Positions 139 through 59,352 of a DNA stretch of 64,000 nucleotides are shown piece after piece. Each line of letters begins with the position of its first letter. Position 1 is the first letter of the stretch. Origin of the DNA: a virus. The stretch is taken from IMG/VR virus record IMGVR_UViG_3300036773_000096, positions 32,001-96,000 of that record, one strand, 5' to 3'. Below the pieces are notes generated by a model, which worked only from the letters and a program-made list of their open reading frames with translations, was not told where the DNA came from and did no database searches. The position numbers were made by a program, and so were the translations under genes.

Positions 139-323
139 GAGATCTCCTATGTGTCGGTGGCGTACATGGATCTGGTGGATCTGCTGCATGATCGACCGGG
201 CGTTGGGCGCTTGCCCATGTCGGCCGTGCCCGGCGCCCCCGGCGTCTTGCGCGTGGTCTTCGGTCACGCCCGTCATCATCGAGCGTGCACGGGCTCTATC
301 CCTGCCGACGCGCCGTAGCGGGC

Positions 324-36400: not shown

Positions 36401-38177
36401 AACCGCCGGGGATGGTGTTCGCACCGGCCGTCACGGTGGTGGTGCCGTCGGCGTGGGCGGTGCCTACCGGATTCGGCTTAACGGGCGCGGCGGGCGCGGG
36501 CGGGTTAGCGTGCGGTGCTGCCCCCGGTGGAACCGCCGGAGCCGGTCCTGCGACGCCCGGCTTTTGCTGCCCGCCATCGGGGGCAGCGCCGGCCTGTGGA
36601 GTCACTGCCTGCGCGGCGACCGCGTCGAGACGCTTGGCGGCGACCTCCGATGGCAGCACCAGCAGGCTGGCGGCCATCTCGTGCGGGTCCTGATCGGGCG
36701 GCAGACCCATCCGCGTGAGGGCTTCCGCGAGGGCGTCACGATCCTGGGTGGCGATCGCCGATTCGGCGTCATCGCGGGCGCCGGCCGCGTCGACTTCACC
36801 GACGGGCGCGGGGGCGGAGAACGGGGTGATCTGAGACAGGACGTCGCGGACGGCCTGCTGGTCGGCGCTGCGCTGCTTGGCGTTGGCCCACCGCTTCTTA
36901 CGCGCTTCGATGTCATCCCAGGGGATGCCGATCTGGGTGAGGTGATCCAGCGCGGCGTCGATCTGGTCGGGGGGCGCGTCGGGGGGGATCTGGGCGGCGT
37001 TGGACAGGCCGCTGCCCGCATTGGCGGTGTCGACGATTGTCCAACCGGCGCCTCCGTGGACGGCGGCGAGCTGCCCATCGGTGGACGCGTGGACATCAGC
37101 GCCGGGGGCGGCGAACTGGGCGAGCATCGCCAGGGAGTTCTCGGCCAGGCTGGAGTCACCGAACGCCGGGGTCTTCTGGACCTGCTCATTGAGTTCCTGG
37201 TACCGCTGATGCAGCGCGGCTAGTGCTTTGGAGACACCGGGGCCGGGCGGCGCGAGCGGGGCTAGGGCAGGGTCACCGGGCGCGCCGGCAGCACCGGGTG
37301 TGCCCGGCTTGGCGGGCATTCCGGGGCCACCGTGGAGCTGCTGGGGCTTGACCGGCCCACTGGCGCCTTCCGGTGCGGTGGTGGCCGCGATCTGTGCGGT
37401 GGTGGGTGTCTGGCCGCTGCGGGGACGCATGCCGGCTTTGATGGGGGTGCCTAGGGGCATGCCCCAGAACTCGGCGTCGCGCACGACACGGATGCCCTTG
37501 TACTCCACGCCATCAAGCACAGTGGTCCCCTCGTCGGTGACACCGGAACGAGACTCATCGTACCAGATGTCCCCGACACCTTCGGAGAGAGATTTCACCC
37601 CCGTGAGGTGCGCGAGCTTATGTGCCCCGTGCAATACCTGGGACCACTCATACAAATCATAGTCATGCAGGTAACGCTTACCGCTGCGCATCCGATAACC
37701 ACCGGGGCGCACCTTATACCCAATGGAGAAACATTCCTCCGGCCCGTAGAACTTAGCGTCCGCGTAAGCGTCGCGGCCGATCTCTTTATCCAGGTTGTAC
37801 TTCGCCTTGATCAGCAGACCGCCCGCGTTGGCCGGCCACGGCTCACCCTGCGGAGTCGTCTTAGGCAACTGCGGGTCACCCGGCATGAGTTCCTTCGACC
37901 ACACCAGCCGCGACACCTTCGCTGACCAGTTGTGCGACATCACGCCCTTGGGCTTCAGCCGCTTGATCGCGGTGGCCAGCGAGCCCGGCACGATGACGTC
38001 GCCGACCTCATCGACCACCCCAGAGACCGCGACCAGCGCCGTGATCGTGCCGTCGGCGTCGTCGTGACCGATCACCCCGGTCAGCGGGGAGGTCATCTCC
38101 GCTGTGGGCAGCGCCTTCCACTCCAGCGCATCCATGTCCTCCGGAGTGTCGACGTCATCCGGGAACGTTGTGGTCAC
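27486..38177 (-). CDS. 3563-aa fusion: HK97-type prohead protease + long linker + N6-adenine methyltransferase + SNF2-like helicase (DarB-like) + zinc ribbon
   Basis: Protease: DEVGDVIVPGS, GVMSHNW, FSIGY, LYEWSQV. MTase: VLEPGSGSG, GNVPFG. Helicase: HVVGAGKT, DEAH, ATGTP, HHLDAPWRPSDVEQRDGRIMRQGN. C-terminal CPECG/CPSCG. Confidence 0.92.
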   Translation of the reverse strand: MTTTFPDDVDTPEDMDALEWKALPTAEMTSPLTGVIGHDDADGTITALVAVSGVVDEVGDVIVPGSLATAIKRLKPKGVMSHNWSAKVSRLVWSKELMPGDPQLPKTTPQGEPWPANAGGLLIKAKYNLDKEIGRDAYADAKFYGPEECFSIGYKVRPGGYRMRSGKRYLHDYDLYEWSQVLHGAHKLAHLTGVKSLSEGVGDIWYDESRSGVTDEGTTVLDGVEYKGIRVVRDAEFWGMPLGTPIKAGMRPRSGQTPTTAQIAATTAPEGASGPVKPQQLHGGPGMPAKPGTPGAAGAPGDPALAPLAPPGPGVSKALAALHQRYQELNEQVQKTPAFGDSSLAENSLAMLAQFAAPGADVHASTDGQLAAVHGGAGWTIVDTANAGSGLSNAAQIPPDAPPDQIDAALDHLTQIGIPWDDIEARKKRWANAKQRSADQQAVRDVLSQITPFSAPAPVGEVDAAGARDDAESAIATQDRDALAEALTRMGLPPDQDPHEMAASLLVLPSEVAAKRLDAVAAQAVTPQAGAAPDGGQQKPGVAGPAPAVPPGAAPHANPPAPAAPVKPNPVGTAHADGTTTVTAGANTIPGGYDLPKTPPATPEAPAAPADDRKYGTPVLVNTYGIKPGSYPTVKASEVRAGDHVMLSRHDGGKVTQAKPGRTGQTLITYDDGTGGGTQTRGVKNRSALPLVSAGTPAVDPNKPQAAPEHEYKPTGNHNAPEKLTDAQLAAESAAAHERHMTARRNNLPKNSLEYSDSKLAATRFGDESRRRAAATVAESTPAPEVDAHPLVTPAAPDDSALLAQLSGHVSAPHLSAALATLARDQSDPALAHAATIARGSLDSPSAKTPEKLAAELIRVKNQMAEAPDSATLHATLDGLQRIVAALKADNSKVQVGGKPRAGSPQRQLLHENLAEYTRHVRGALHADENPDTPGDQPPATAPEDTGGPKVKPDPLRPAPGQIDYSAIQKRSHPAYRDAALRQLDDTELASVKREATRRGGHGANMADSVRTEEIRRRITPDELRKRADKTGGGASDGEAKRMRDRADDYERRDAAGIGRHDFATLPLGEHPKAPESTGGEVPAGTPDGTVPVPPEVADSAHRIRGEALGLSDGPDGQEEVTQEVADRQERVAALLETGEAGLADQTDPQLTETRKDLTDELALQDELHRRDTERKREAATRKAEAGASSVSATDAPAGPEDTGPKVRPGVAGAAEDLGDALNATPRDDAAVAAAAERFAKMLRRHGDSTAFDDIRTAIGDGDIHTAIASGKLKAGMLFTAAGALREQRRVKRNEGAKARRLAKRLDRDRIKSLIGSVDAELRRRKGAPEDGKRGAVDAPRKGPVPSTAAPSTEPAPHSQQVRRDERDARLAADGNRVTRAQEHMREARAAADGGDFEGAFAHLDQAQELNPERQRLWDKARGIVTGQRDRAKGAQSPQREGDDRGSSGEASRSVVPDVPAAGVRGDQGQADVLRRPGRASAPADTADSRPTGGAGSGGGELPREAGAPERRAASGDGEGDAGVPDEPAAPERPGQRAATAGDTGPVDGADGGSDGSGADSSTGGLPGSPGGTEAAAPGQREGGDADTAGAPSAPDVTETDQPSADVGQVDAIPDTGESFHPTGLDDFAPAGKKSKLEANLAALRTLRQLQDERRAATPEEQATLARWAGWGGLPEVFDDNKPEYAKQREELRGLLSDSEWAEARRNTLNAHYTDPRVVQSLWKAMGDLGFDGGRVLEPGSGSGTFIGFAPEHADMVGVELDSTTAAISRALYPHATIRNESYAATRLPAGSFDAAIGNVPFGDFALTDRVHNPGRKMSIHNHFIAKALAQTKPGGLVTLLTSRYTLDSKDSAARKKLAELGDLVGAVRLPTGGHSRISGTDVIEDALIFRRREPDAAPLTSQDWVNSHDQDINGHTITINDYFTAHPEQMLGEVTAEKGQYGTGSLIVKGDKTMADLPAALDRIVAAAKADGITASPRMEGLTAFTTPDDDRHEGHIAAHEDGTFTQAEQGTAVALDVPAKHAEAVRGLIGLRDTLRSLLAAEAASVSDSPDIKALRKQLNDRYDAFTKKYGPVNHYTLTKSGARKPDPARNLFRKDPMSAIVRALGAYDAETGTESKTSIFRKRASTPREIPTHADSPEDAVALSMDTYGRVNLPAIATMLDTDEAGARERLGDLVFEQPPLSAADADAAFRAHIEEASGIASDGGRFGGISAGLNLDDAPDTSALDSVGEAVRSEGSLEPAAAYLSGNVRRKLAAAREAAKRDDRFAKNVTALEAVIPPDLGVDEVDGRLGAAWIPADDVRAFMVELLSDGDDPYHSIKVSTSGGGIWTVEGGQWGTKATEEWGTDRLSAGEIIQSLLEQRSIQVRDTIKDADGKSKSYPNLEATTAAQAKAEELSDRFSEWLWEDSDRTRRLLAAYNNQFNAIRLRSYDDMPRVFPGMADSFDPFDHQVGAVNRMVSEPCALLAHVVGAGKTAEMAMGTAELKRLGLANKPAIVIPNHMLEQFSREYLQIYPNAKVLAAGTDDLAGDKRREFVARAATGEWDAIILTQKAMEAIPMSRPAMQAYIDREMATMKAQLASAQASAAGDSAKEKTVKKMENSLIKAEEALKAKLDKVKDAGVSWEETGIDYLCVDEAHMYSNLRTISNIQGAGATGSDMASDLHMKMEHLRANNKSGRVGTFATGTPIRNTVTQAYIMQRFLDPETLREAGIHSFDQWAATFGKTVDEMELKPEGTGFRQTTRFAKFRNVPELLRLFHLFADVKMADDLNLKTPDLATGGVQNVIVPASPELSAYVQELGQRAEDVRNGKVKPEDDNMLKISGDGRKAALSMALVGEKHQPGKIEEAADNIYKIWDANKDRPVPKDINDPAGGDDPPPGGMQIVFCDMGTPGGAGMNAYQKLRDELAARGMDPKSIRFMHEAKNDREKAELFAAARNGQVSVLVGSTEKMGVGTNVQRRAVALHHLDAPWRPSDVEQRDGRIMRQGNTNKEVAIFRYVTEGSFDAYMWQTLERKKKFIDQIMRGKMGDVREIEDVGDTALSYAEVKALATGNPLLMDKAKVDVTVGKLTRLERQHARTQTNLRRDVVSYGANAEQADADAAAYNAAIAKRTDISGDKYSINVAGITARTRADGATLLKSAMQDQIRERRYGYAGSKPKPLGTIGGHVLLGQPEVHYDKLGTKRFGMTLSWEGLPGNIVHISPSDVEKLGAGINTTLANSLNNLEFRRDLQVDRAASLRSEAATMKARIGVPFAHAAALKEATAESARLQAAMEAAGMKGDAGPQQDEATKGLATARTKASAKVALMGRGSAGPEKDRLKRFSIPAASPDAAASPDGTLAALGSGNKLEVFMTSDGELIPRPDDARGAIDNVHALLDDLAALDFPWAEGHWAINRRIQPGYSGGYEAPDYSKPYEERERIRKAKEAARQAEADAERAKIDAVWKRHLVVEEKTAGSLVDELTMLRAARLGVEFKLRAQQGPKPSDTDADGPDTDGPEDVESYEDTVIEGYRYVMDASGMLVKVAPCPECGNDIMIPAYGMVGTAPCPSCGTGALQGRATATVG
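33386..33850 (-). CDS. TnpV-like protein nested out of frame within the giant ORF
   Basis: GAGAGAGGG RBS, ATG at 33850 (or GTG 33844); strongly G/C-ending codons in this frame; pattern QPQAY..LAEQARQ..EKLGRLNAAQQAATEKVMREFL resembles TnpV (PF14198). Confidence 0.75.
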   Translation of the reverse strand: MIVGVLARQAEAWYRTYQPQAYAGIKDKQTFFDDLAEQARQQIQQTADQLAGPDPEGESYPEKLGRLNAAQQAATEKVMREFLMSPPPPNAPDNALPLPATPDPSMVPTEDPTDQALTQALADFQAAQEELRQQHRDSAKAAMPTLPERPAHLT

Positions 38178-42121: not shown

Positions 42122-42216
42122 GCGGGGCTGCGCTATTGCCGCAACTGTAACGCAGCTCCGCAACTCTGCGATGTAGCGGGCGTAAGCGTTCCGACCCAAC
42201 CGAAAGCGAGCACCAC

Positions 42217-47001: not shown

Positions 47002-47718
47002 TCACCGGATCGTTTCGGGGAGCAGCTCGCCCAGCCGGCGCACCGCCCGGTGCTGCAAAGCCTTCACCGCCCCCGCGTTATAGCCCTCACCCATCGCGGC
47101 GGCCGTCTGCGCGACCGTCAGCTCCAGGTCGAACCGCAAGTGCAGCACTTCCTGCTGGCCGGCGGTGAGCTGGCGCCGAGCCCGGTCCAGCGCGGTGCGC
47201 GCGTGGTCGAGGTAGACCACCCTGGTGGCCTCCTCGCTGGGATCAGCGTCCTCTGCGAGGCCGATCGCGAAGACCTGACGGCGCATCTGCTTGCTGAATC
47301 CCACCGAGCGCATGTTCGCCGGGGCCGGCCAGGCGCTCTCACCCGTGTCGATCGCGTCACCTGAGGGCATCTCCAAGCGCTGGCGACTGGACTTCACGTG
47401 ATCGAGGACGAGGTTGCGGGCGATGGTGACGAACCACGCGCCGACGTCACGGCCCTGGTAGTGCGCTGAGTCGATGCGCTTCAGCGCGCGGCAGAACGTC
47501 TCACTGGTGAGGTCTTCAGCGGTAGGCCGGTCCACGGTGCGGTAGAGGACGAAGCGGAACACCACGTCGACGTAGCGCTCGTAGAGCATGCCGAACGCGG
47601 CGGAGTCCCCACCCTGGGCGGAGGCGACGAGATCCCAGCAGTCCCCGCGCTCAACCTCGTCAGCGGAGCGCCGCTTGCGCATGCTGGAGCGGAAGTGCGG
47701 GACGACGGCGGTGCTCAT
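47002..47718 (-). CDS. ECF sigma factor, BldN/SigD-like
   Basis: LVASAQGGDSAAFGMLYERY, TAEDLTSETFCRAL, QGRDVGAWFVTIARNLVLDHVKSSR and AVKALQHRAVRRL closely follow Streptomyces BldN regions 2 and 4. Confidence 0.9.
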   Translation of the reverse strand: MSTAVVPHFRSSMRKRRSADEVERGDCWDLVASAQGGDSAAFGMLYERYVDVVFRFVLYRTVDRPTAEDLTSETFCRALKRIDSAHYQGRDVGAWFVTIARNLVLDHVKSSRQRLEMPSGDAIDTGESAWPAPANMRSVGFSKQMRRQVFAIGLAEDADPSEEATRVVYLDHARTALDRARRQLTAGQQEVLHLRFDLELTVAQTAAAMGEGYNAGAVKALQHRAVRRLGELLPETIR

Positions 47719-48008
47719 GCGGTCGCCCCGAGCACCGCGTAGGCGGCTTCGACGCTGCACGGTGGGGTCATGTCGACCTCGTCGACGCCGTAGTGGGCGC
47801 AGCGGTCGAACGCGGCGGCGTTGGTGTGGTAGCCGCCGCACGCGGGGCAGTAGTGGTCGCGGCAGACGTAGTCGTCACCGTCGTCGGTGAGACCGGTGTA
47901 GCCGTCGGCGGTGACGGGGATTCCACCATCGCGGCGAATCTCGACGACGACGGTGGCGTTGCATACCTTGCACGGGCCCTGTTCGAGCAGGGTCTCTGAA
48001 GTCGACAC
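47715..48008 (-). CDS. Cys-rich hypothetical protein
   Basis: CKVC, CRDHYCPAC; ATGA-coupled to the sigma gene. Confidence 0.62.
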   Translation of the reverse strand: MSTSETLLEQGPCKVCNATVVVEIRRDGGIPVTADGYTGLTDDGDDYVCRDHYCPACGGYHTNAAAFDRCAHYGVDEVDMTPPCSVEAAYAVLGATA

Positions 48009-48031: not shown

Positions 48032-48051
48032 CCGGAACGAGGGCCAGTCTA
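48032..48051 (-). promoter_or_regulatory. TANNNT-N7-GTTCCG promoter of the sigma operon
   Basis: TAGACT-ggccctc-GTTCCGG. Confidence 0.65.
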
Positions 48052-48067
48052 CTGGGTGAGTTCCGTA

Positions 48068-48087
48068 GCTGTCCAGCTGTCCGGACA
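48068..48087 (+). promoter_or_regulatory. Putative GntR operator, copy 1
   Basis: GCTGTCCAGCTGTCCGGACA, 19/20 identical to 49463-49482; TACTGT -10 box follows. Confidence 0.65.
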
Positions 48088-48104: not shown

Positions 48105-48344
48105 ATGGCCCAACCATGCACTCGCACCTATGCGGATGACGTGACCGACGCGCTGACGTTGCTCGACGACGCGCAGCGGGAGATCAAAAACTGGCGCGCC
48201 CACCTGAATGCCCTAAGGGAAGACCCCAACCCTGGGCGCGCCCGGCAGGCCCAACGCTGCGGCGAGATCGTTGCGGCAGCAATCAACGCTGCGGTCTGTA
48301 ACACGCGGGACGCGGTCGGCGATATAACCCGTATCAGCCACTGA
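48105..48344 (+). CDS. Hypothetical protein (probably leaderless)
   Basis: TACTGT 6 nt upstream of ATG. Confidence 0.62.
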   Translation: MAQPCTRTYADDVTDALTLLDDAQREIKNWRAHLNALREDPNPGRARQAQRCGEIVAAAINAAVCNTRDAVGDITRISH

Positions 48345-48360: not shown

Positions 48361-48531
48361 ATGAAGATCCGTTCCGCCCTCGCCGTGACCGCTGCCCTCG
48401 GTGGCGGTGCCGTGCTCACCGCCGCGCCCGCACTCGCCTGCGGTGACACTCCCGGCTTTTGCCCCAACCCGCCCACCAGCTCCAACCCGGACAACGGCGA
48501 CTACGGCGTCGGAGTCGGCGGAGACTGGTAG
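48361..48531 (+). CDS. 56-aa secreted peptide
   Basis: GGAAGGA RBS; MKIRSALAVTAALGGGAVLTAAPALA signal peptide then CGDTPGFCPNPPTSSNPDNGDYGVGVGGDW; below the ORF-track cutoff. Confidence 0.65.
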   Translation: MKIRSALAVTAALGGGAVLTAAPALACGDTPGFCPNPPTSSNPDNGDYGVGVGGDW

Positions 48532-48539
48532 ACAAGGAT

Positions 48540-48616
48540 TGGCCGCTAGCTCAACGGTAGAGCGGCTCGCACGGCGCCGTGCGGGGCGGCCCTGGGTTCG
48601 ACTCCCAGGCGGCCAA
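48540..48616 (+). ncRNA. tRNA-like RNA lacking a canonical anticodon loop
   Basis: Acceptor TGGCCGC/GCGGCCA; D arm GCTC-AACGGTA-GAGC; T arm CTGGG-TTCGACT-CCCAG; a 23-nt GC hairpin replaces the anticodon arm; no encoded CCA. Confidence 0.75.
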
Positions 48617-48617
48617 C

Positions 48618-49436
48618 TCAGTGGATCGTGGTCTCGAAACTGAGCACGTAGCTCGATGCCTCGATCACCGCGATCGAACACTCCACCGGCCGGTCCCCCG
48701 CGTAGAACACGCGCATGATCTCCCCCACGGGCCCCACCACATCCATACCCAGAACCTGACGCTCACGCGGCGTCGGGGGGCGAACCCTGACCTCCTCTAA
48801 GACGCGGGACACCACGAGCCCCACGGAGTACAGCTCCGCCAGGGTTCCCCCCGGCCAGGGCTGCCGATCCGGGTCAGCGACCGGGGTACCGGCCACTAGG
48901 TCTAAGGGAATCACTGACGTTTGCAGCTGCACCGTCACCCCGCGCACCTGCTTAATCAGCTCCCGCGCGAGCACCATCGCACCGGGCACCAGCTCCAGGC
49001 GCGCCGCGAAATCCTCACCGGCCGGCTCTTCGACGTAGTGGGCGAGCACGTTGTGCTCCGGCCACGCCACACCGTGATCCGTCGTGAACGCCGACGACAG
49101 CGGATGGCAGCCATCGTGGGCGCGGATCGCGTCCAGGGCCTCCTGGTATCGCTGCGTCGACATCCGGCGGACTTGCGGTGGGGTAGCCACTCGGGTGGGG
49201 CACCCCGAGCGCTTCACGATCCGGCCCTCAGCTACCAGGTCATCCATGGCGGTGCGCACCGTGGCGCGGGCAACGCCGGCCATTTCGGCGATCGCATGCT
49301 CACCGGGCAGGGTCTCACCTGCGGCAAGGGTGCCGTCGATGATCGCTCGACGTATCGCGTCGGCGACCTGACGGTGCAGCGGCGTGCCCACCTCGAAGCG
49401 GTTGACGCTCCGAAAGTGGACCCCAGTTAGTGGCAC
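48618..49436 (-). CDS. GntR/HutC-family regulator with UTRA domain (KorSA/TraR-like)
   Basis: QVADAIRRAI..GETLPGE..VARATVR HTH; WPGGTLAELYSVG..EEVRVRPPT.RE..L UTRA; TATGAT-N7-GTG start at 49436. Confidence 0.88.
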   Translation of the reverse strand: MPLTGVHFRSVNRFEVGTPLHRQVADAIRRAIIDGTLAAGETLPGEHAIAEMAGVARATVRTAMDDLVAEGRIVKRSGCPTRVATPPQVRRMSTQRYQEALDAIRAHDGCHPLSSAFTTDHGVAWPEHNVLAHYVEEPAGEDFAARLELVPGAMVLARELIKQVRGVTVQLQTSVIPLDLVAGTPVADPDRQPWPGGTLAELYSVGLVVSRVLEEVRVRPPTPRERQVLGMDVVGPVGEIMRVFYAGDRPVECSIAVIEASSYVLSFETTIH

Positions 49437-49462
49437 GCCACGAATCATAGCCGACCTGTCAG

Positions 49463-49482
49463 GCTGTCCAGCTGTCCGTACA
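49463..49482 (+). promoter_or_regulatory. Putative GntR operator, copy 2
   Basis: GCTGTCCAGCTGTCCGTACA between divergent -10 boxes (TATGAT on minus at 49444-49449, TACTGT on plus at 49490-49495). Confidence 0.68.
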
Positions 49483-49572
49483 CCCGGTGTACTGTGGTGA
49501 GACCACAAGACGTCGCCGGCCGGACGGGTGGAACGAACCCCGCCGGCCGGCGAAACCAACGAAGGGGGCGAC

Positions 49573-50409
49573 ATGGACGCAGACGCCAGGGCCCCCCTGT
49601 TCAACCGCTGGACGTGGGGCGCGGTCGGGCTCACCATCGCCCCGCTGATCCTCTGGGGCGCCGCCAGCGTGTTCCTGCTCGCCGTAGCGTGCGGCATTCC
49701 CGCCTACCTCGCGTGGATCCCGTCAGCGTCGACCACGGGCGTCATGCTCGTGTCGTCGATCTTCGCGATGACCGAAAGCCTCTCCGATGAGGTCCGCACC
49801 TACGCCCGCCGGATGGCCTACTCCGCGATCGGCCTGGACACCGTCGTGTCCGGCCTGCACCTCGCGCTGCCAGTGCACCTCAATCCCGCCGTGGGGTGGC
49901 TGGTGTTGATCGGCATGCTGCCCCCCCTGACTGGCGGCATCACCGGGCACATGATCGCCGCCGCTGTCCGTGAGCACCGCGCCACCGGCAAGGCGGCCGT
50001 CGCCGCCCAGCTCGCCGCCGAGCAAGCCCACCGCGACAGTGAGGCCGCCATCGCACGGGCGGAACGTCTCGCGACCATCGCCCGCGCCGAAGCCGACGCC
50101 AAACGCATCGCCGATGAGGCCGATGCCCGCAAGCGCGCCGCTGCGGCGGCCGTCGTCAACACGGCGCTGACCGGGCCGACGCTAGTCCGCGCCCCCGCGC
50201 CGAAGCCCCCGGCCAGGCGCACCGCGAAGCCGACCTTGCGTGATGCGGCGGTCGCCGAGCTGGTCCGTCGTCACCGCGCCGGCCAGAACATCGCGGCCAC
50301 GGTGGCCGCCGAGCTGGACATCGCGATCGGCGCCGGCAAGGGCTACTGCAAGAAGTTCCTGCCCGAAATCGTCGACCACGTGCTCACCGCTGAAAGGAGG
50401 ACCGCCTGA
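49573..50409 (+). CDS. DUF2637 / Spd-like membrane protein
   Basis: About 4 TM segments, IPAYLAWIP, then an Ala-rich coiled coil and a C-terminal helical domain. Confidence 0.65.
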   Translation: MDADARAPLFNRWTWGAVGLTIAPLILWGAASVFLLAVACGIPAYLAWIPSASTTGVMLVSSIFAMTESLSDEVRTYARRMAYSAIGLDTVVSGLHLALPVHLNPAVGWLVLIGMLPPLTGGITGHMIAAAVREHRATGKAAVAAQLAAEQAHRDSEAAIARAERLATIARAEADAKRIADEADARKRAAAAAVVNTALTGPTLVRAPAPKPPARRTAKPTLRDAAVAELVRRHRAGQNIAATVAAELDIAIGAGKGYCKKFLPEIVDHVLTAERRTA

Positions 50410-51524
50410 TGGCCACGAAGACGACGGCCCGGCCGAAGCCGAAGGTCACGCCGCTGCCGGGGCAGAAGCGCATCACACCTAAGCCCACCAACGCCCGCGA
50501 GCACACCGCTGAACGGATCAGCAAGTGGATGGGCAAGCGCGGGTGGACTAAGGCCGTGCGGGGTGTCTACCGCTACAGCGTGAAGAAGTCTGAGGCCCGC
50601 CGGGAGAACCGGCTCGCGCTGAAAGAGATGCGCGAGAGCGCGGTGCCGACGTGGCGCCAGCGCGTGGAGCACCGCCGCTCCCAGCGCACCGGGGGCGCGG
50701 GGCGGGGGCGGGCTAAGAACTACTGCGCTGGGTGCGGCAAGGCCATGTCGGCCGAAGAGTTGCGCACGCACGACTGCGGGCCGAAGCCCAAAGCGGCCAA
50801 GGCTACAGCGGCAACGGCGGCGACCCAGCCGGCGCCCGCAGCCCCGCCGGCACCAGTTGCGGCACCGCAAGCGCCGCAAGCTCCACCCGCTGCGCCCTCA
50901 GACACTCCGGCTACACCGGCACCGACTCGACGCCAACGGCTGAAGGACCGCCTGTCCGGCAAGGCGGAGATGCCCACGCAGCCAATCGTGGCGCCGGCCG
51001 GCGCGACGGTCACCCCGATCGCAGGATCCAAGCCCGCACCACCCCCGGCGACCGCAGGGGCGAACAACAACGAAGGGAGCCCCCAAATGGCATGGGGCAG
51101 CAAGTCAGGCAACGGCAACGGTGCAAGCGCAGCTGGCGGCGGAAGCTCTGGGGCGGCCAGTTCCGCCACGGTCGGGGCGATGCTCACGCCGTGGACGGCG
51201 TGGGCACAGAACGTACCCAAGACCCACATTGAGATGGTCGCCGAGCTGGAGGCGATGAACCAGCTGATGGTGGCCATCGGGCAGACCATCCGGGAGCGCC
51301 AGGCCCGCATGATCAACATGGGCTCTGGCCCCAACGGGGAACAGATCGGCTTTCACCCCACCTGCGTCCAGCAGCTCAACGGGGCCGCCGACCAGATCTC
51401 CGCTGCCGGCGCCTACTTCACGGCCACCCACGTGGCGATCACCGCGCACTACCAGGCGCTGATCCAGCACTACCAGGGCGGCACTCCCGATCCCGGCCGC
51501 CAGTACCTGTCCAACGCCAGCTAA
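50409..51524 (+). CDS. Transfer-accessory (TraA-like position) protein
   Basis: Basic N-terminus, C-x2-C..H.C motif, Pro/Ala linker, helical C-terminus; directly upstream of TraB. Confidence 0.55.
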   Translation: MATKTTARPKPKVTPLPGQKRITPKPTNAREHTAERISKWMGKRGWTKAVRGVYRYSVKKSEARRENRLALKEMRESAVPTWRQRVEHRRSQRTGGAGRGRAKNYCAGCGKAMSAEELRTHDCGPKPKAAKATAATAATQPAPAAPPAPVAAPQAPQAPPAAPSDTPATPAPTRRQRLKDRLSGKAEMPTQPIVAPAGATVTPIAGSKPAPPPATAGANNNEGSPQMAWGSKSGNGNGASAAGGGSSGAASSATVGAMLTPWTAWAQNVPKTHIEMVAELEAMNQLMVAIGQTIRERQARMINMGSGPNGEQIGFHPTCVQQLNGAADQISAAGAYFTATHVAITAHYQALIQHYQGGTPDPGRQYLSNAS

Positions 51525-51547
51525 TCAGACGAGAGGAGCACACCATC

Positions 51548-53725
51548 ATGGGTCGACGCGTCGGGCACGCTCCGGCGATCGCTCACGACCAGACCTGGGG
51601 CGAGTGGTACAACACGCATTCCCGCCTGTTGAACCCTTTCGCCGCCGGGGCGGCCGTGGGTCTCGCCGGGGTGCTCGATGCGTTGCTCGTGCCCTTCTGG
51701 TGGCAGACCGTCGCGGGGGTCAGTGTCGCCGGGCTCGGGGTTTTCTTGTGGACTATTGGCCTGCTCGATGCGATGCAGCGCCGCGTCTACCGTTTCATCC
51801 TCGTGCTGGGCATGTTGTGGATGTTCGCCTGTCACACGCCGTGGGCGACGGAGTACAAGCTGGATTTCGGTATCGCCTGGTTTTGTGCGGTGATGCTGTC
51901 CGGGTGTGCCTACTGGACTGACCAGCGTGAGACGAAGCGTCGTGAGGTTGACGCTGAGGTCAAGGCGTGGGCCCAGTTCAAGGCTAAGAAGCTCGGAATC
52001 GAACTGTCCCGCATTACCCCTAAGAAGAAGACCAAGAACGGCTCTACGCGTCGCCTGTGGTGGGATGGGGACGATTACACGGTGTCTCAGATCAAGGGAC
52101 TCGCTCCCCGCATCGAGGCATCGTTGGGTATTCCCCTGGGGCAGCTGCGGGTCATGGAAGTCAAGAACGACAGCGACATGACCCGGTCGGACTGTGTCGA
52201 CCTCGTCGAGAACACCGACAACGCTGCCCGGCGCATTCCCGTGGCGTTCACCTCGCCCACCATGACGTCGATTTGTGACGCCATGGACGTCGGGCCTTAC
52301 GACGATGGCGAAATGTGCCAGATCTTCTGGTACAAGCAGGGATTCGGTGGCACGCACACTCTCGCCGCTGGGGCGACCCGGTCAGGTAAGAGCGGTTTGT
52401 ACCACCTGATGTTGGCGGAGACGGCGAACTGTGACGATGTGGTGCGGTTCGGTATCGACGCCAAGGGCGGAATGGCGCTGCGGCCCTGGGCGCCGATGTT
52501 CCACTGGTTGGTGTGTGGTCGCGACGAGGCTGCCATGGAGGAGGCCGCCGCACTACTGGAGCGCATCAACGCGATCATGATTTACCGGGAGAACTACGCG
52601 GCCAGCAAGGGCTGGGACGTCTGGCGGGTCAGTAAGAAGCACCCGTTGATCATTCTGTATGTCGATGAGGCAGCAGAAGTGTTCAACATGCAGATGGAGA
52701 ACTTCCACGCCCTCCAGCTAGTGGAAAAGCTCGGCCGGATGGGTGCCGGTGTCGGTGTTCTGTTGTGCGCCGCAACCCAGTACCCGACTCTGGACGCGAT
52801 CGGCTCCAGCCAGCTCCAGGCGAACATTCTGCGGAGGTTCTGTTTCCGGGTGCAGCAGACCGCACACCAGGCGATCGCATTGGGTCGCCACAACGGGGCC
52901 GTGGATGCCACGTTCCCCGACAAGCCCGGCGGCGACAAGGGCGCCGGGTGGTGCTTCCTGTCCGAGATGGGCTACATGCGCGACATGGCGTTGCGGGTTC
53001 GCAACGTCGACCGTGACGGCATCTACGACATCGTGTGCAAGTACTGGACGCGGTGCTGCCCCCTGGATGCCGGCAGCGCGAACGTCGACTGCCGCAACGA
53101 CGAGTACCGGGCCCGGAAGATCTGGCGCCCGGAGGACGTCAAGCCGAGCAGCGGCGTGTGGGCCGACGAGGACGACGAGGACACCCCGGATCCGGCGCTG
53201 GGACCTGACGCTATCGACGACGAGTTGGCGGAGATGCTCAGGGATTCCGGCGGGGACTCGAAGGGGAGCCCGGCGGGGACTCCGGCCGGGGAATCAGCGG
53301 GGAACGAGCCGGGGACTCCGGCCGGGGAATCAGCGGGGAACGACACTAAGGAGCAGGTCATGGACACAGCGACGACGGAGGCCAGCATCCCGATCATGGA
53401 GATGCTGATGCCACAGGGCAAGGCCGAAGCGGAAGATCTGGCGGCGGCGCAGAAGCGGTACGCAGAGGAGAATGAGGACTGGTCAACGGAGAAGGCCACT
53501 GCCGAGTTCTGGCGGATCTTCCAGGTGGCCGGCCGCGACGGGGTCCGGGTGAAGACCCTGCGGGAGAAGTGCCACCGGTCGGTGTCGTGGACTCAGAACA
53601 AGCGACGGGAGGCGCAGGAGGCCCAGGCGATCGTGCCGATCGCGGCGGGCTCGGAGTACTACCGGCTGGTGTCCCCGTCGATGGTGCCCCAGGCATACCG
53701 CCTGGACTCCGGTAACGCAGAGTGA
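51548..53725 (+). CDS. traB: TraB-like FtsK/SpoIIIE DNA translocase
   Basis: N-terminal TM segments; Walker A AGATRSGKS; Walker B ILYVDE; ATQYP; C-terminal winged-helix-like segment. Confidence 0.88.
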   Translation: MGRRVGHAPAIAHDQTWGEWYNTHSRLLNPFAAGAAVGLAGVLDALLVPFWWQTVAGVSVAGLGVFLWTIGLLDAMQRRVYRFILVLGMLWMFACHTPWATEYKLDFGIAWFCAVMLSGCAYWTDQRETKRREVDAEVKAWAQFKAKKLGIELSRITPKKKTKNGSTRRLWWDGDDYTVSQIKGLAPRIEASLGIPLGQLRVMEVKNDSDMTRSDCVDLVENTDNAARRIPVAFTSPTMTSICDAMDVGPYDDGEMCQIFWYKQGFGGTHTLAAGATRSGKSGLYHLMLAETANCDDVVRFGIDAKGGMALRPWAPMFHWLVCGRDEAAMEEAAALLERINAIMIYRENYAASKGWDVWRVSKKHPLIILYVDEAAEVFNMQMENFHALQLVEKLGRMGAGVGVLLCAATQYPTLDAIGSSQLQANILRRFCFRVQQTAHQAIALGRHNGAVDATFPDKPGGDKGAGWCFLSEMGYMRDMALRVRNVDRDGIYDIVCKYWTRCCPLDAGSANVDCRNDEYRARKIWRPEDVKPSSGVWADEDDEDTPDPALGPDAIDDELAEMLRDSGGDSKGSPAGTPAGESAGNEPGTPAGESAGNDTKEQVMDTATTEASIPIMEMLMPQGKAEAEDLAAAQKRYAEENEDWSTEKATAEFWRIFQVAGRDGVRVKTLREKCHRSVSWTQNKRREAQEAQAIVPIAAGSEYYRLVSPSMVPQAYRLDSGNAE

Positions 53726-57731: not shown

Positions 57732-58700
57732 CTAGGCGGCGATTCCCAGCACCGCTTCAGCGGTCACCCAGTCCCGCGCGATCGCGACCTGCGCATCGCG
57801 CAGCGGCACGGGGCGCATGCCGGGAATGCGGCCACACACCGCAGAGTGCAGGCGAGTCTCAACGTTGTCCTTAGAGTTGCGGAACCCCTGACCAGCCAAG
57901 TCCGACCGCTCCGCCCACAGGTTGCTCACGTCGTTGCTGCCGCCCAGCCACAGCGGCACGTCGTGATCCAGCTCCGTAGTTGACCGCGCCGACGCGGGCA
58001 CCCCGTAAGCGGCCATGGCGATCGTTTTCAGCCGGTCCGTCTCGGCCTTCGGGGCCCGGATCGTGCTCGTCGACCAGTGCGGATTGCAGATCGTGGCGGC
58101 TTTCGTGGCGTCGGTGATGTCGCTGCGCACCGAGCCCGGCGTGCACGACATCACCGGCAGGCGTGGGTCATCGGCCACCCCGCGCACGCAACGGGCCGGG
58201 TAGGTGCCGGTGACGTGCGCGGTCGGCGCGATGATGACCTTCGGGCCGCCGTCGCCGATGGGTGCCATCAGGGCCCGCATCTCCTCCGGTGGCACCGACG
58301 GAAGCTCACCGAGGTCAGTGGCGGGCGACGCGGTTGTCGGGGCGGGGACGGCCAGGGAGTCGATAGCGCCCACGCCGCATCCGGTGAGTACCAGGAGCAG
58401 GATGCCGGCCACGGCGCAGCTGATGACGAACGCCCACGGGAACCAGCGGCGGCGCCTCCGCGACCGCCGGCCGCGCCGGATGGCGTGCTGGGCGGTGTTA
58501 ACGGTGACCAGCTCAGGTTCGTCGAGGCGTGCGGAGTCGCGCAGCTTGGCCAGTTCCTCCCGGAGCGGGTCGCTCGTGTCCGTGGGTGGCTGGGCGGCGT
58601 GGAGGCTGTCGAGTAGGGCGTCGTCGGCCCGGATCGCGGCCATGTCCAGGCCCGCGTGATCGGGGTCGAACAGCGGGCCGAGCTTGCGGTGGCGTCTCAT
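57732..58700 (-). CDS. RsdA-like anti-sigma N-terminus + TM + extracytoplasmic HNH-like domain
   Basis: MAAIRADDALLDSL..DPLREELAKLRD..EPELV N-terminus; TM ending LVLTGC; ELDHDVPLWLGGSNDVSNLW..KDNVETRLHSAVC. Confidence 0.6.
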   Translation of the reverse strand: MRRHRKLGPLFDPDHAGLDMAAIRADDALLDSLHAAQPPTDTSDPLREELAKLRDSARLDEPELVTVNTAQHAIRRGRRSRRRRRWFPWAFVISCAVAGILLLVLTGCGVGAIDSLAVPAPTTASPATDLGELPSVPPEEMRALMAPIGDGGPKVIIAPTAHVTGTYPARCVRGVADDPRLPVMSCTPGSVRSDITDATKAATICNPHWSTSTIRAPKAETDRLKTIAMAAYGVPASARSTTELDHDVPLWLGGSNDVSNLWAERSDLAGQGFRNSKDNVETRLHSAVCGRIPGMRPVPLRDAQVAIARDWVTAEAVLGIAA

Positions 58701-58861
58701 CGGGTGCTCCGTTTCAGGATCCATCGACCAGTCGAGTAGTAGACGATGCCAGCGACGGGCAGGGCGAGCAGGTAGGCGAAGGCGACGACGCTGAAGACGC
58801 ACACGGTGGCGACGACGCCGGCTAGGGCGACGAACAGTCGCAGCATCGCGTAGATGATCAT
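58697..58861 (-). CDS. Small two-TM protein
   Basis: AGGAG RBS; MIIYAMLRLF..; ATGA-coupled. Confidence 0.62.
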   Translation of the reverse strand: MIIYAMLRLFVALAGVVATVCVFSVVAFAYLLALPVAGIVYYSTGRWILKRSTR

Positions 58862-58929
58862 TTCGGGTACTCCTGGGGCCGGAACGGTGAAGCGGGACAC
58901 CCGATATGTCGCCGACCGGGTGTCCGGTG

Positions 58930-59352
58930 TTACTGGTCGGGCCGCATGCAGATCAGGGGACACGGGCCGCCGGTCTGTTGCTCTTGCTGGGCGATGTGGG
59001 CCTGCACCTGCTGCGTGCAGTAGGCGTCGGCAGCGTCGGCGTTGTGCGCCTGCGGCTCCAGGCCGTAGACGTGGCGCATGAACACGTCGTTGATCCCGCA
59101 GTGGTACGTCGTGACCGGTGCCTGTCCGGGACGGGTCAGGACGCAGACCGTGTGCTCGCCAGTGATGTTGAGCTTGCAGTCCTCGACGGTGCGCGGGTCA
59201 GGCTCGCCCTCGACGGCGGTGCACACGGTGCGGGTGCGGTCGCCTTCGAGGGTCGCTGTGCAGTGCGGCCCGGCCGTGCTCGCCGGAACCTCGCAAGCGG
59301 CACCGGCCAGGGCCAGCGCCAGGCAGGCGCCCAGGAGCAGACGCCTACTCAT
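58930..59352 (-). CDS. Putative Cys-rich lipoprotein
   Basis: MSRRLLLGACLALALAGAAC lipobox-like signal. Confidence 0.58.
   Translation of the reverse strand: MSRRLLLGACLALALAGAACEVPASTAGPHCTATLEGDRTRTVCTAVEGEPDPRTVEDCKLNITGEHTVCVLTRPGQAPVTTYHCGINDVFMRHVYGLEPQAHNADAADAYCTQQVQAHIAQQEQQTGGPCPLICMRPDQ

Follow-up and report, generated by a model that had tools for sequence, protein, structure and literature searches.

A phage-borne extracytoplasmic function sigma factor from the BldN/SigD family, accompanied by a candidate RsdA-like anti-sigma factor and a putative accessory-gene regulon

BldN, a sigma factor of the extracytoplasmic function (ECF) type, directs the transcription of chaplin, rodlin and bldM genes and is needed for aerial hyphae. 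Sigma factors of phages are usually viewed as timers of late genes or, in Bacillus phages, as modifiers of sporulation. RsbN contacts BldN at sigma2 helices 1-3 and sigma4 helices 5, 6 and 8; the BldN linker is flexible and 27 residues long, in a range of 26-32 for ECF linkers, and BldN-RsbN crystals were obtained only after its removal (PMC6101532). Chromatin immunoprecipitation sequencing of Mycobacterium abscessus SigD yielded the promoter consensus GTAACA/G-N16-CGAT (PMC13537577), and Corynebacterium glutamicum SigD recognises a -35 element GTAACA/G and a -10 element GAT (PMC6338062). In cells, the expression of the anti-sigma factor genes rsbN and rsdA depends in turn on the sigma factor (PMC6101532; PMC6338062). 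Here we describe a gene of this family, P0001, in 64,000 nucleotides (nt) of viral DNA, hereafter the window, representing bases 32001-96000 of the 120,179-bp IMG/VR record IMGVR_UViG_3300036773_000096. We consider it rather probable that P0001 belongs to a phage-borne, signal-responsive BldN/SigD sigma/anti-sigma module which was captured from a Pseudonocardiaceae-like host and has its own accessory-gene regulon, and that it is not a late sigma factor for virion genes.

The element carrying P0001 is a phage, presumably of a soil actinomycete: the record has direct terminal repeats of 127 bp, was rated 100 % complete by CheckV, and contains genes for a portal, a MuF-like and a major head protein 3' of the sigma factor gene on the same strand. 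P0001 has the composition of an ECF (group IV) sigma-70 factor, i.e., sigma2, sigma4 and a linker only, without regions 1.1 and 3. Pfam recognised only Sigma70_r2 (residues 45-112, E 3e-13) and Sigma70_r4 (residues 183-229, E 3e-6), and the sigma70-ECF model TIGR02937 scored 74 bits at a cutoff of 43. The top NCBIfam model was the BldN family TIGR02952 with 136 bits (E 1e-39), its match falling in two stretches, and the runner-up reached 74 bits. The best PDB chain was 6dxo_A, BldN of Streptomyces venezuelae in complex with RsbN (E 8.6e-39), with residues 29-112 aligning to BldN 2-85 and residues 176-237 to BldN 91-150. The predicted structure has two helical domains with a predicted local distance difference test (pLDDT) value above 90 and a linker of low confidence. 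A preliminary description of the window had proposed a BldN-type phage sigma factor and quoted the strings AEDLTSETFCRAL and QGRDVGAWFVTIARNLVLDHVKSSRQRLE; both are present in P0001, and with TIGR02952 far ahead and 6dxo_A as the best chain the proposal was borne out. Hallmarks of sporulation-type factors (SigF/SigG-like) were absent, as the listed NCBIfam matches were all ECF models and the Pfam scan revealed no region 3. The annotated start, ATG at 47718, is likely the correct one, because it overlaps the stop codon of the upstream open reading frame (ORF; ATGA) and the homologues have likewise 236-244 amino acids (aa); a GTG at 47841 is possible as an alternative start, but unlikely. Isolate phages (INPHARED) had no DNA match, and in 50,697 records of isolate phages no close relative of P0001 was found; best were crAss-like ECF sigma factors with 25-33 % identity, the top one having 27 %.

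Hundreds of cellular ECF sigma factors match P0001 at about 55 % identity over 89 % of its length. Taking one genome per species, the best matches were in metagenome-assembled genomes (MAGs) of uncultured Pseudonocardiaceae (55-56 %), followed by Amycolatopsis and Saccharothrix (51-53 %), whereas Streptomyces and Kitasatospora reached only 44-45 %. An RsbN-like gene of the DUF5667 type lies directly 3' of the cellular sigma factor genes in Streptomyces and Pseudonocardiaceae (loci L090 and L018), thus these homologues represent the bldN-rsbN orthologous pair. Loci L018 and L021 lie in the unpublished genomes G006 and G007, which partly underlie the statement on the closest relatives, the finding that L018 has an RsbN-like neighbour, and the counts of the motif given below for these two genomes. 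In a quick tree of 99 rows, the phage clade had a Shimodaira-Hasegawa-like approximate likelihood ratio test support of 100 and adjoined a clade of uncultured Pseudonocardiaceae (support 95). A careful tree of 54 rows recovered the phage clade with 100/99 on the Pseudonocardiaceae side of a branch supported by 95/87; the exact sister of the phage clade was weakly supported (38-42). A constrained group of phage and Streptomycetaceae sequences, named after the tree was seen, cost 32.6 log-likelihood units and was rejected by the approximately unbiased (AU) test (p 0.023). The phage sigma factor falls inside the clade of cellular actinomycete BldN/SigD-type orthologues. The family relationship stated in the preliminary description hence holds, while an affinity to Streptomyces is contradicted by both the identities and the AU test. 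The phage lineage probably captured the gene from a Pseudonocardiaceae-like host.

The whole 120-kb genome was searched for promoters starting from the -35 element of the family. GTAAC(A/G)-N16-CGA(T/C) is present at 10 sites, with 0.93 expected from a first-order Markov model and a maximum of 3 in simulations (n=40). Including a trailing [AG]T, 8 sites were found versus 0.28 expected, and the spacing is fixed. The motif is exactly the SigD consensus of M. abscessus, spacing included, and also fits the SigD elements of C. glutamicum. In silico, eight of the 10 sites lie between genes or at the end of a gene and have the orientation of the gene that follows. Among the genes 3' of the sites are those for a cation-efflux protein and a DUF6011 protein, an ORF of 56 aa with a signal peptide, and several unknowns of small size. 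Other records were counted against a reversed-pattern control. A sibling phage (G001, sigma factor 96 % identical) has 9 sites versus 0, a syntenic fragment of 20.6 kb (G002, 57 % identical) 2 versus 0, and an unrelated viral record of 56 kb (G003, sigma factor 46 % identical and without the linker insert described below) 7 versus 0; a joint occurrence of sigma factor, anti-sigma factor and motif was considered for these three records. One of the two sites in G002 is placed upstream of the sigma factor gene and divergent from it, just like the promoter at 48298 (Table 1), which is also kept in position in G001. Two further records tested had zero sites. Phage contigs of 547 kb in total which share only the C-terminal domain of the anti-sigma factor and lack the sigma factor showed no enrichment (6 versus 8); they came from a metagenome scan with C-terminal anti-sigma patterns and are nearly all C-terminal-domain relatives. 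P0001 is identical or near-identical to the cellular orthologues in its sigma4 recognition helix, GAVKALQHRAVRRL, and in the region of the sigma2 loop.

The preliminary description had seen the gene either as a manipulator of host development or as the middle or late sigma factor of the phage. A phage sigma factor with phage targets is supported by the presence of the family-type promoter set in the phage genome, but the late role is not. A weight matrix built from 17 sites detected no further site above the threshold in the phage genome, and none before any virion gene. In the virion block, some genes are preceded by members of a phage-wide class of SigA-type promoters, TAnnnT-N6-8-GTTCCG, which has 24 sites versus 0.8 expected and stands before many genes. 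The gene is separated by two small ORFs from the portal/MuF/head block downstream of it, and late sigma factors of phages often adjoin late operons, so a control of virion and lysis genes via promoters too divergent for the family motif may be considered. Yet not even a weak motif site precedes any virion gene, promoters of the SigA type with an extended -10 element are found there instead, and a new specificity is disfavoured by DNA-reading parts that are unchanged from the cellular relatives. A function as middle or late sigma factor for virion and lysis genes is highly improbable.

The second component of the proposed module is P0272, a candidate anti-sigma factor. A sigma-type promoter before its operon fits the usual feedback of ECF systems, because the cellular rsbN and rsdA are sigma-dependent; the counterpart of this promoter in the sibling phage is located 234 nt before its anti-sigma factor gene. 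P0272 has 13 full-length relatives of 43-100 % identity. Their N-termini share the pattern LD.AAI.ADDALLD ... DPL...LA..R......PELVDVDTA..AI, followed by a basic stretch, a hydrophobic helix ending with L(T/A)GC and a Cys-rich domain that is conserved and contains ELDHDVPLxLGGSND. Seven of the 13 family members match the Pfam family RsdA_SigD_bd singly (best E 6e-5); recurrent matches to another family were absent. The family profile had one credible match in the PDB, 3vep_X (E 1.9e-4, residues 9-79 of 80), which is the N-terminus of RsdA of Mycobacterium tuberculosis crystallised with domain 4 of SigD. NCBIfam contributed a weak 'anti-sigma factor' match (E 0.002). The basic stretch, the hydrophobic helix (residues 67-106 in the model) and a C-terminal domain with pLDDT >90 correspond to a predicted topology in which the chain crosses the membrane once and the C-terminal domain is extracytoplasmic. 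A fold search with the model yielded nothing at E <= 0.001; among the weak matches (E >= 0.9) HNH nucleases dominated, in keeping with the ELDH...N motif, but this does not count as evidence. A homologue of RsbN was not detected in the phage by tblastn (best E 0.06), and hhalign gave a probability of 0.2 % for the P0272 family against an RsbN-like protein. Accordingly, the adjacent rsbN of the DUF5667 type that accompanies bldN in cells is missing at the phage locus. A comparable phage sigma/anti-sigma module was found neither in isolate phages nor in the literature searched.

The Cys-rich domain of P0272, with ELDHDVPLxLGGSND and four invariant Cys residues, also stands alone in proteins of 190-240 aa (P0286-P0332, loci L102-L195). 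Many of these have an LxGC lipobox, and they occur on numerous large contigs of soil phages, up to 166 kb in length. Judged from these sequences, the domain appears to be a phage-borne secreted domain. A 9-bp inverted repeat, GGACACCCG / CGGGTGTCC (58895-58925, minus strand), straddles the -10 element of the anti-sigma promoter and is a possible operator.

The partner of the sigma factor may have changed in the phage clade. Positions were regarded as clade-specific if at least 8 of the 9 members of the phage clade agreed and at most 10 % of 54 cellular homologues shared the residue. Such positions cluster in two places, the N-terminal tail and helices 5-6 of sigma4. The sigma4 residues are R174, R181 (V in cells), T185, V191 (C in cells), L192 (I in cells) and D197 (M or L in cells). 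D197 and L192 align with L138 and V133 of BldN, both contacts to RsbN, whereas the sigma2 residues contacting RsbN in BldN (V4, F15, Y19, F48, L52) are kept. From this we infer that, in the phage clade, sigma4 was remodelled on the face docking the anti-sigma factor, consistent with a change of partner from the RsbN type to the phage RsdA type.

P0001 and eight relatives (57-91 % identical, 236-244 aa) have 28 + 4 extra residues in the linker between sigma2 and sigma4, which are absent from 10 cellular homologues aligned with the phage clade. The additional residues of about 30 aa reported in the preliminary description were thereby confirmed. The alignment revealed in the insert a motif common to the phage clade, WP..NMRSVGF..Q.RR, and the clade also shares VERGDCWDL at the N-terminus. 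By sequence the linker would have about double the length of the BldN and other ECF linkers. In the model the insert is a low-confidence coil with one weak helix (139-153, pLDDT around 50-57), and no domain could be named in it. An escape from the host anti-sigma factor by means of the insert, as suggested earlier, found no support: the linker lies outside the RsbN interface, since BldN was crystallised with RsbN without it and the contacts are limited to helices of sigma2 and sigma4, and most of the modelled insert is coil. The changes in sigma4 together with the RsdA-like anti-sigma factor of the phage are better candidates for an altered anti-sigma pairing than the insert. Among other representatives of BldN-like clusters, P0131, P0156, P0171, P0190 and P0198 have inserts of 25-30 aa at the same linker position with another motif, W.[HN][LI]PEPRDG..DPA. 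P0122 (560 aa) consists of two tandem BldN-like sigma copies (31-199 and 280-460, 40-45 % identical to P0001) without an insert, representing a fusion or else two genes called as a single protein.

The promoter type is not restricted to phages. In host-like genomes, GTAACR-N16-CGAT was counted against the reversed-pattern control and was enriched in every genome tested: 28 versus 6 in G006 and 21 versus 4 in G007, the two closest MAG genomes, 13 versus 4 in an Amycolatopsis genome, 6 versus 1 in a Streptomyces genome and 16 versus 5 in the genome holding the Rhodococcus locus. Mutual reading of promoters is expected, because the recognition helix and the sigma2 loop are conserved and the promoter type is enriched in these genomes. 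Thus, the phage sigma factor probably also fires promoters of the host BldN/SigD regulon, and the host sigma factor those of the phage. A manipulation of host development or envelope genes is possible, as a side effect or second function. As the main function it would imply that the sigma factor, free of RsbN-type control, switches on the host regulon for aerial growth and sheath or envelope, that the anti-sigma factor may sequester the host sigma factor, and that the phage sites are secondary. Such a role would agree with the conserved DNA-reading segments, with the targets existing in the MAG, Amycolatopsis, Streptomyces and Rhodococcus genomes, with a lost control by the host anti-sigma factor due to the changes in helices 5-6, including D197 at the RsbN contact L138, and with the missing RsbN homologue. 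However, phage sites at about ten times the expected number per base, kept in related phages, indicate selection for a phage regulon, and an own anti-sigma factor under a sigma-type promoter is more in line with a self-contained circuit than with a hijacker lacking regulation. Moreover, the sigma4 substitutions can be read otherwise (see below). We regard host manipulation as main function as unlikely.

A host sigma factor of the BldN/SigD type might also serve the phage promoters, e.g., during stress or differentiation, with the phage copy acting as a booster or as a decoy that titrates the host anti-sigma factor and thereby frees the host sigma factor. The promoter type is common to phage and host-like genomes, and the conserved RsbN-contact residues of sigma2 make some binding of the host anti-sigma factor conceivable. 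A decoy, however, needs no intact DNA-recognition helices, yet these are invariant across relatives of 57-96 % identity; furthermore, the contact positions in sigma4 are changed and the phage encodes a separate anti-sigma factor of its own. We hold the booster or decoy to be very unlikely.

In the cellular loci themselves a second promoter form was observed. About 66 of 80 bldN-like loci (L018-L097) contain GTAAC[CT]-N15-(T)CGTT on the plus strand 5-155 nt after the stop of the sigma factor gene, just before the rsbN-like gene. By its position it is probably the sigma-dependent rsbN promoter, a dialect apart from the genome-wide GTAACR-N16-CGAT. The variant GTAACY-N15-CGTT showed no genome-wide enrichment in the host-like genomes and is absent from the phage. 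An explanation of CGAT versus CGTT by the sigma2 loop was dropped, since P0007 has the cellular loop, yet its contig bears CGAT sites. Four Pseudonocardia loci (L040, L044, L069, L073) have a perfect GTAACR-N16-CGAT about 40-50 nt after the sigma stop on the opposite strand, pointing into the sigma factor gene; these sites are possibly sigma-dependent antisense promoters.

For the phage module we propose the following course. Host RNA polymerase with the primary sigma factor would transcribe the Zn-ribbon and sigma factor genes from a SigA-type phage promoter that bears a 16-mer (Table 1). The sigma factor, retaining the cellular DNA-reading parts, would direct the polymerase to about eight phage promoters of the type GTAAC(A/G)-N16-CGA(T/C). 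These would drive accessory rather than virion genes, namely small secreted or membrane proteins, the cation-efflux transporter, the DUF6011 protein and unknowns of the right arm, and one of them the phage's own single-pass membrane anti-sigma factor with an RsdA-like cytoplasmic domain. By analogy to RsdA/SigD and RsbN/BldN, the anti-sigma factor would hold the sigma factor at the membrane until a signal at the outer domain or proteolysis frees it, resulting in a self-limiting, signal-responsive circuit.

Several observations weigh against such a self-contained module. P0001 missed the equivalog cutoff of TIGR02952 (206.45 bits), and its phage relatives score 140-147 bits; the Pseudonocardiales orthologues with 183-198 bits fail as well and Streptomyces passes with 262 bits, the model being tuned to Streptomyces-type members. 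P0272 alone reached only E 0.007 with PF16751, below the Pfam cutoff. The anti-sigma factor gene is about 10 kb away from the sigma factor gene, unlike the adjacent or overlapping cellular pairs. The predicted complex of the sigma factor with residues 1-85 of P0272 scored 0.33 and the best of three controls 0.00, with at least 78 % of the contacts agreeing between runs and a partner pLDDT of at least 64. The mark applied was passed by 58 of 80 solved complexes and by 2 of 110 mismatched pairs, but at values of 0.60 or below by no more than 7 of the 80 solved complexes and by the two mismatches that passed, thus the prediction supports the pairing weakly; the pass may also reflect memory, since a like complex is solved with 3VEP. 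The face of sigma4 that carries the substitutions also binds the polymerase flap, which offers other readings of these changes, and the doubled linker might impair the usual passage of ECF linkers through the polymerase. Three of the sites (genome positions 105842, 115391 and 116010) share a similarity of 26 nt and are not independent, and two (104213 and 105842) overlap SigA-type promoters, to which GTAAC and CGAT may partly belong. The host sigma factor could serve the same promoters, so a phage sigma factor may not be needed there. The evidence obtained covers the family, the phylogeny, the enrichment of the motif and the profile similarity of P0272, while activity, binding and timing are all inferred.

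Table 1 Features of the sigma factor locus and of the putative regulon (positions in the window unless marked as genome positions)
Feature	Position	Strand	Remarks
ECF sigma factor gene P0001, BldN/SigD family	47002..47718	-	238 aa; based on Pfam, NCBIfam, PDB, alignment, model
Parts of P0001	residues ~26-115; ~116-159; ~160-232		sigma2; linker with insert of ~32 aa; sigma4
Zn-ribbon-like ORF	47715..48008	-	97 aa, CxxC...CxxC; GTG start after GGAGGGA; stop overlaps sigma ATG
Promoter of Zn-ribbon/sigma operon	48032..48075	-	-35 TGGACA 48075-48070, -10 TAGACT 48051-48046, GTTCCGG box 48038-32
16-mer GCTGTCCAGCTGTCCG, candidate operator	48068..48083	.	over -35 of the sigma operon promoter
16-mer, second occurrence (identical)	49463..49478	.	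between GntR/UTRA gene and first gene of the (+) TraB-like block
SigA-type class, examples in the window	48051(-), 42121(-), 37562(-), 57709(-), 61938(-), 63971(-), 21389(-), 23649(+)
Sigma-type promoter GTAACA-N16-CGAT	48298..48323	+	divergent from sigma operon, 63 nt before 56-aa ORF
56-aa signal-peptide ORF	48361-48531	+	downstream of 48298 promoter
tRNA-like gene	48540-48617	+	ARAGORN; after 56-aa ORF
Candidate anti-sigma factor gene P0272	57732..58700	-	322 aa; RsdA-type N-terminal region ~19-75, basic stretch, transmembrane helix with LTGC, Cys-rich outer domain
54-aa membrane-protein ORF	58697..58860	-	first gene after 58933 promoter; stop overlaps anti-sigma ATG (ATGA)
Sigma-type promoter GTAACA-N16-CGAC	58908..58933	-	before anti-sigma operon
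Six sigma-type sites outside the window	genome 102805, 103577, 104213, 105842, 115391, 116010	-	right arm
Motif match GTAACG-N16-CGAT	42147..42172	+	inside and antisense to DUF932 gene; antisense promoter or chance
Weakest motif match	37671..37696	+	inside and antisense to gene of 3563 aa; probably chance

The promoter of the sigma operon is of the SigA type with the form TGGACA-18-TAGACT and belongs to the phage-wide class mentioned above. The class form is TGGTAnnnT (extended -10) followed by N7 and GTTCCGG, each with a TTGCGN-like -35 element. GTTCCGG near the start site is foreign to a normal SigA promoter and may act as an operator or initiation element. Autoregulation was not indicated, as the weight-matrix scan found no sigma-type site in the upstream region of the sigma operon on the strand of the operon. 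The Zn-ribbon ORF is 64 % identical in the syntenic relative L003/G002; it matched no Pfam or NCBIfam family, and its Atlas matches were all <0.9. The two identical copies of the 16-mer suggest a shared repressor of the sigma operon and the GntR/TraB-like module. This neighbouring region (48618-53725) encodes a GntR/UTRA regulator (Pfam E 3e-15 and 3e-14) beside a 725-aa protein with a weak FtsK_SpoIIIE match (E 3e-4). The pair resembles the TraR/TraB module of actinomycete conjugative plasmids and is syntenic in L003 with 61-62 % identity. The tRNA-like gene at 48540 was called by ARAGORN as tRNA-??? with an abnormal 'anticodon' of 4 nt.

A further-reaching interpretation, which we put forward as tentative and rather doubtful, would see in the record a phage or phage-plasmid-like element with a complete transmembrane ECF pathway: a sensor anti-sigma factor with a phage-type extracytoplasmic domain, a sigma factor insulated from RsbN via sigma4, and a secreted or membrane regulon. 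Such a pathway might sense the host envelope or the surroundings, e.g., wall damage, lysis of neighbours or superinfection, switch accessory genes and drive or block the BldN/SigD programme of the host. If true, phages of mycelial actinomycetes would possess a sensory decision system of a new kind.

Among the described systems, BldN of Streptomyces with RsbN (6DXO) shares with the phage sigma factor the ECF family, the two-domain architecture, the -35 element GTAAC and the RsbN-contacting residues of sigma2. The phage protein differs in being only 44-45 % identical, below the TIGR02952 cutoff, on the Pseudonocardiaceae side of the tree and phage-encoded; it lacks the long N-terminal pro-sequence seen in the Streptomyces ORF of locus L090, its linker is about twice as long, an adjacent rsbN is missing, and helices 5-6 of sigma4 are remodelled (R181, D197). 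SigD/RsdA of Mycobacterium and Corynebacterium (3VEP) resembles the phage module in the promoter motif and in an anti-sigma factor with RsdA-type N-terminus, single transmembrane helix and outer domain; in C. glutamicum, rsdA likewise stands behind a sigma-type promoter. In the phage, however, the two genes are 10 kb apart instead of adjacent or overlapping, the putative regulon consists of phage accessory genes, and the Cys-rich outer domain with its HNH-like motif matches short secreted proteins of other large phages rather than RsdA. With T4 gp55, SPO1 gp28/gp34 and the sporulation types of Bacillus phages (PMC9429907), P0001 has in common a host descent and the presumed ability to redirect host RNA polymerase. 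Those are late or middle sigma factors for structural genes or SigF/G-like modifiers of sporulation, none of them described with a cognate membrane anti-sigma factor, whereas here an ECF sigma factor is combined with a putative accessory regulon of small size and with a candidate anti-sigma factor. If confirmed, the module would demonstrate that phages are able to import outside-in signalling of the host style, i.e., sigma factor, membrane anti-sigma factor and promoters, and to connect it with accessory genes of their own. Such a module would, in addition, be a natural case of re-pairing between a BldN-like sigma factor and an RsdA-like partner, with bearing on the evolution of ECF specificity and on the design of orthogonal ECF switches. 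As the promoter type is common to host-like genomes, a steering of development and envelope remodelling by phages becomes testable in mycelial actinomycetes.

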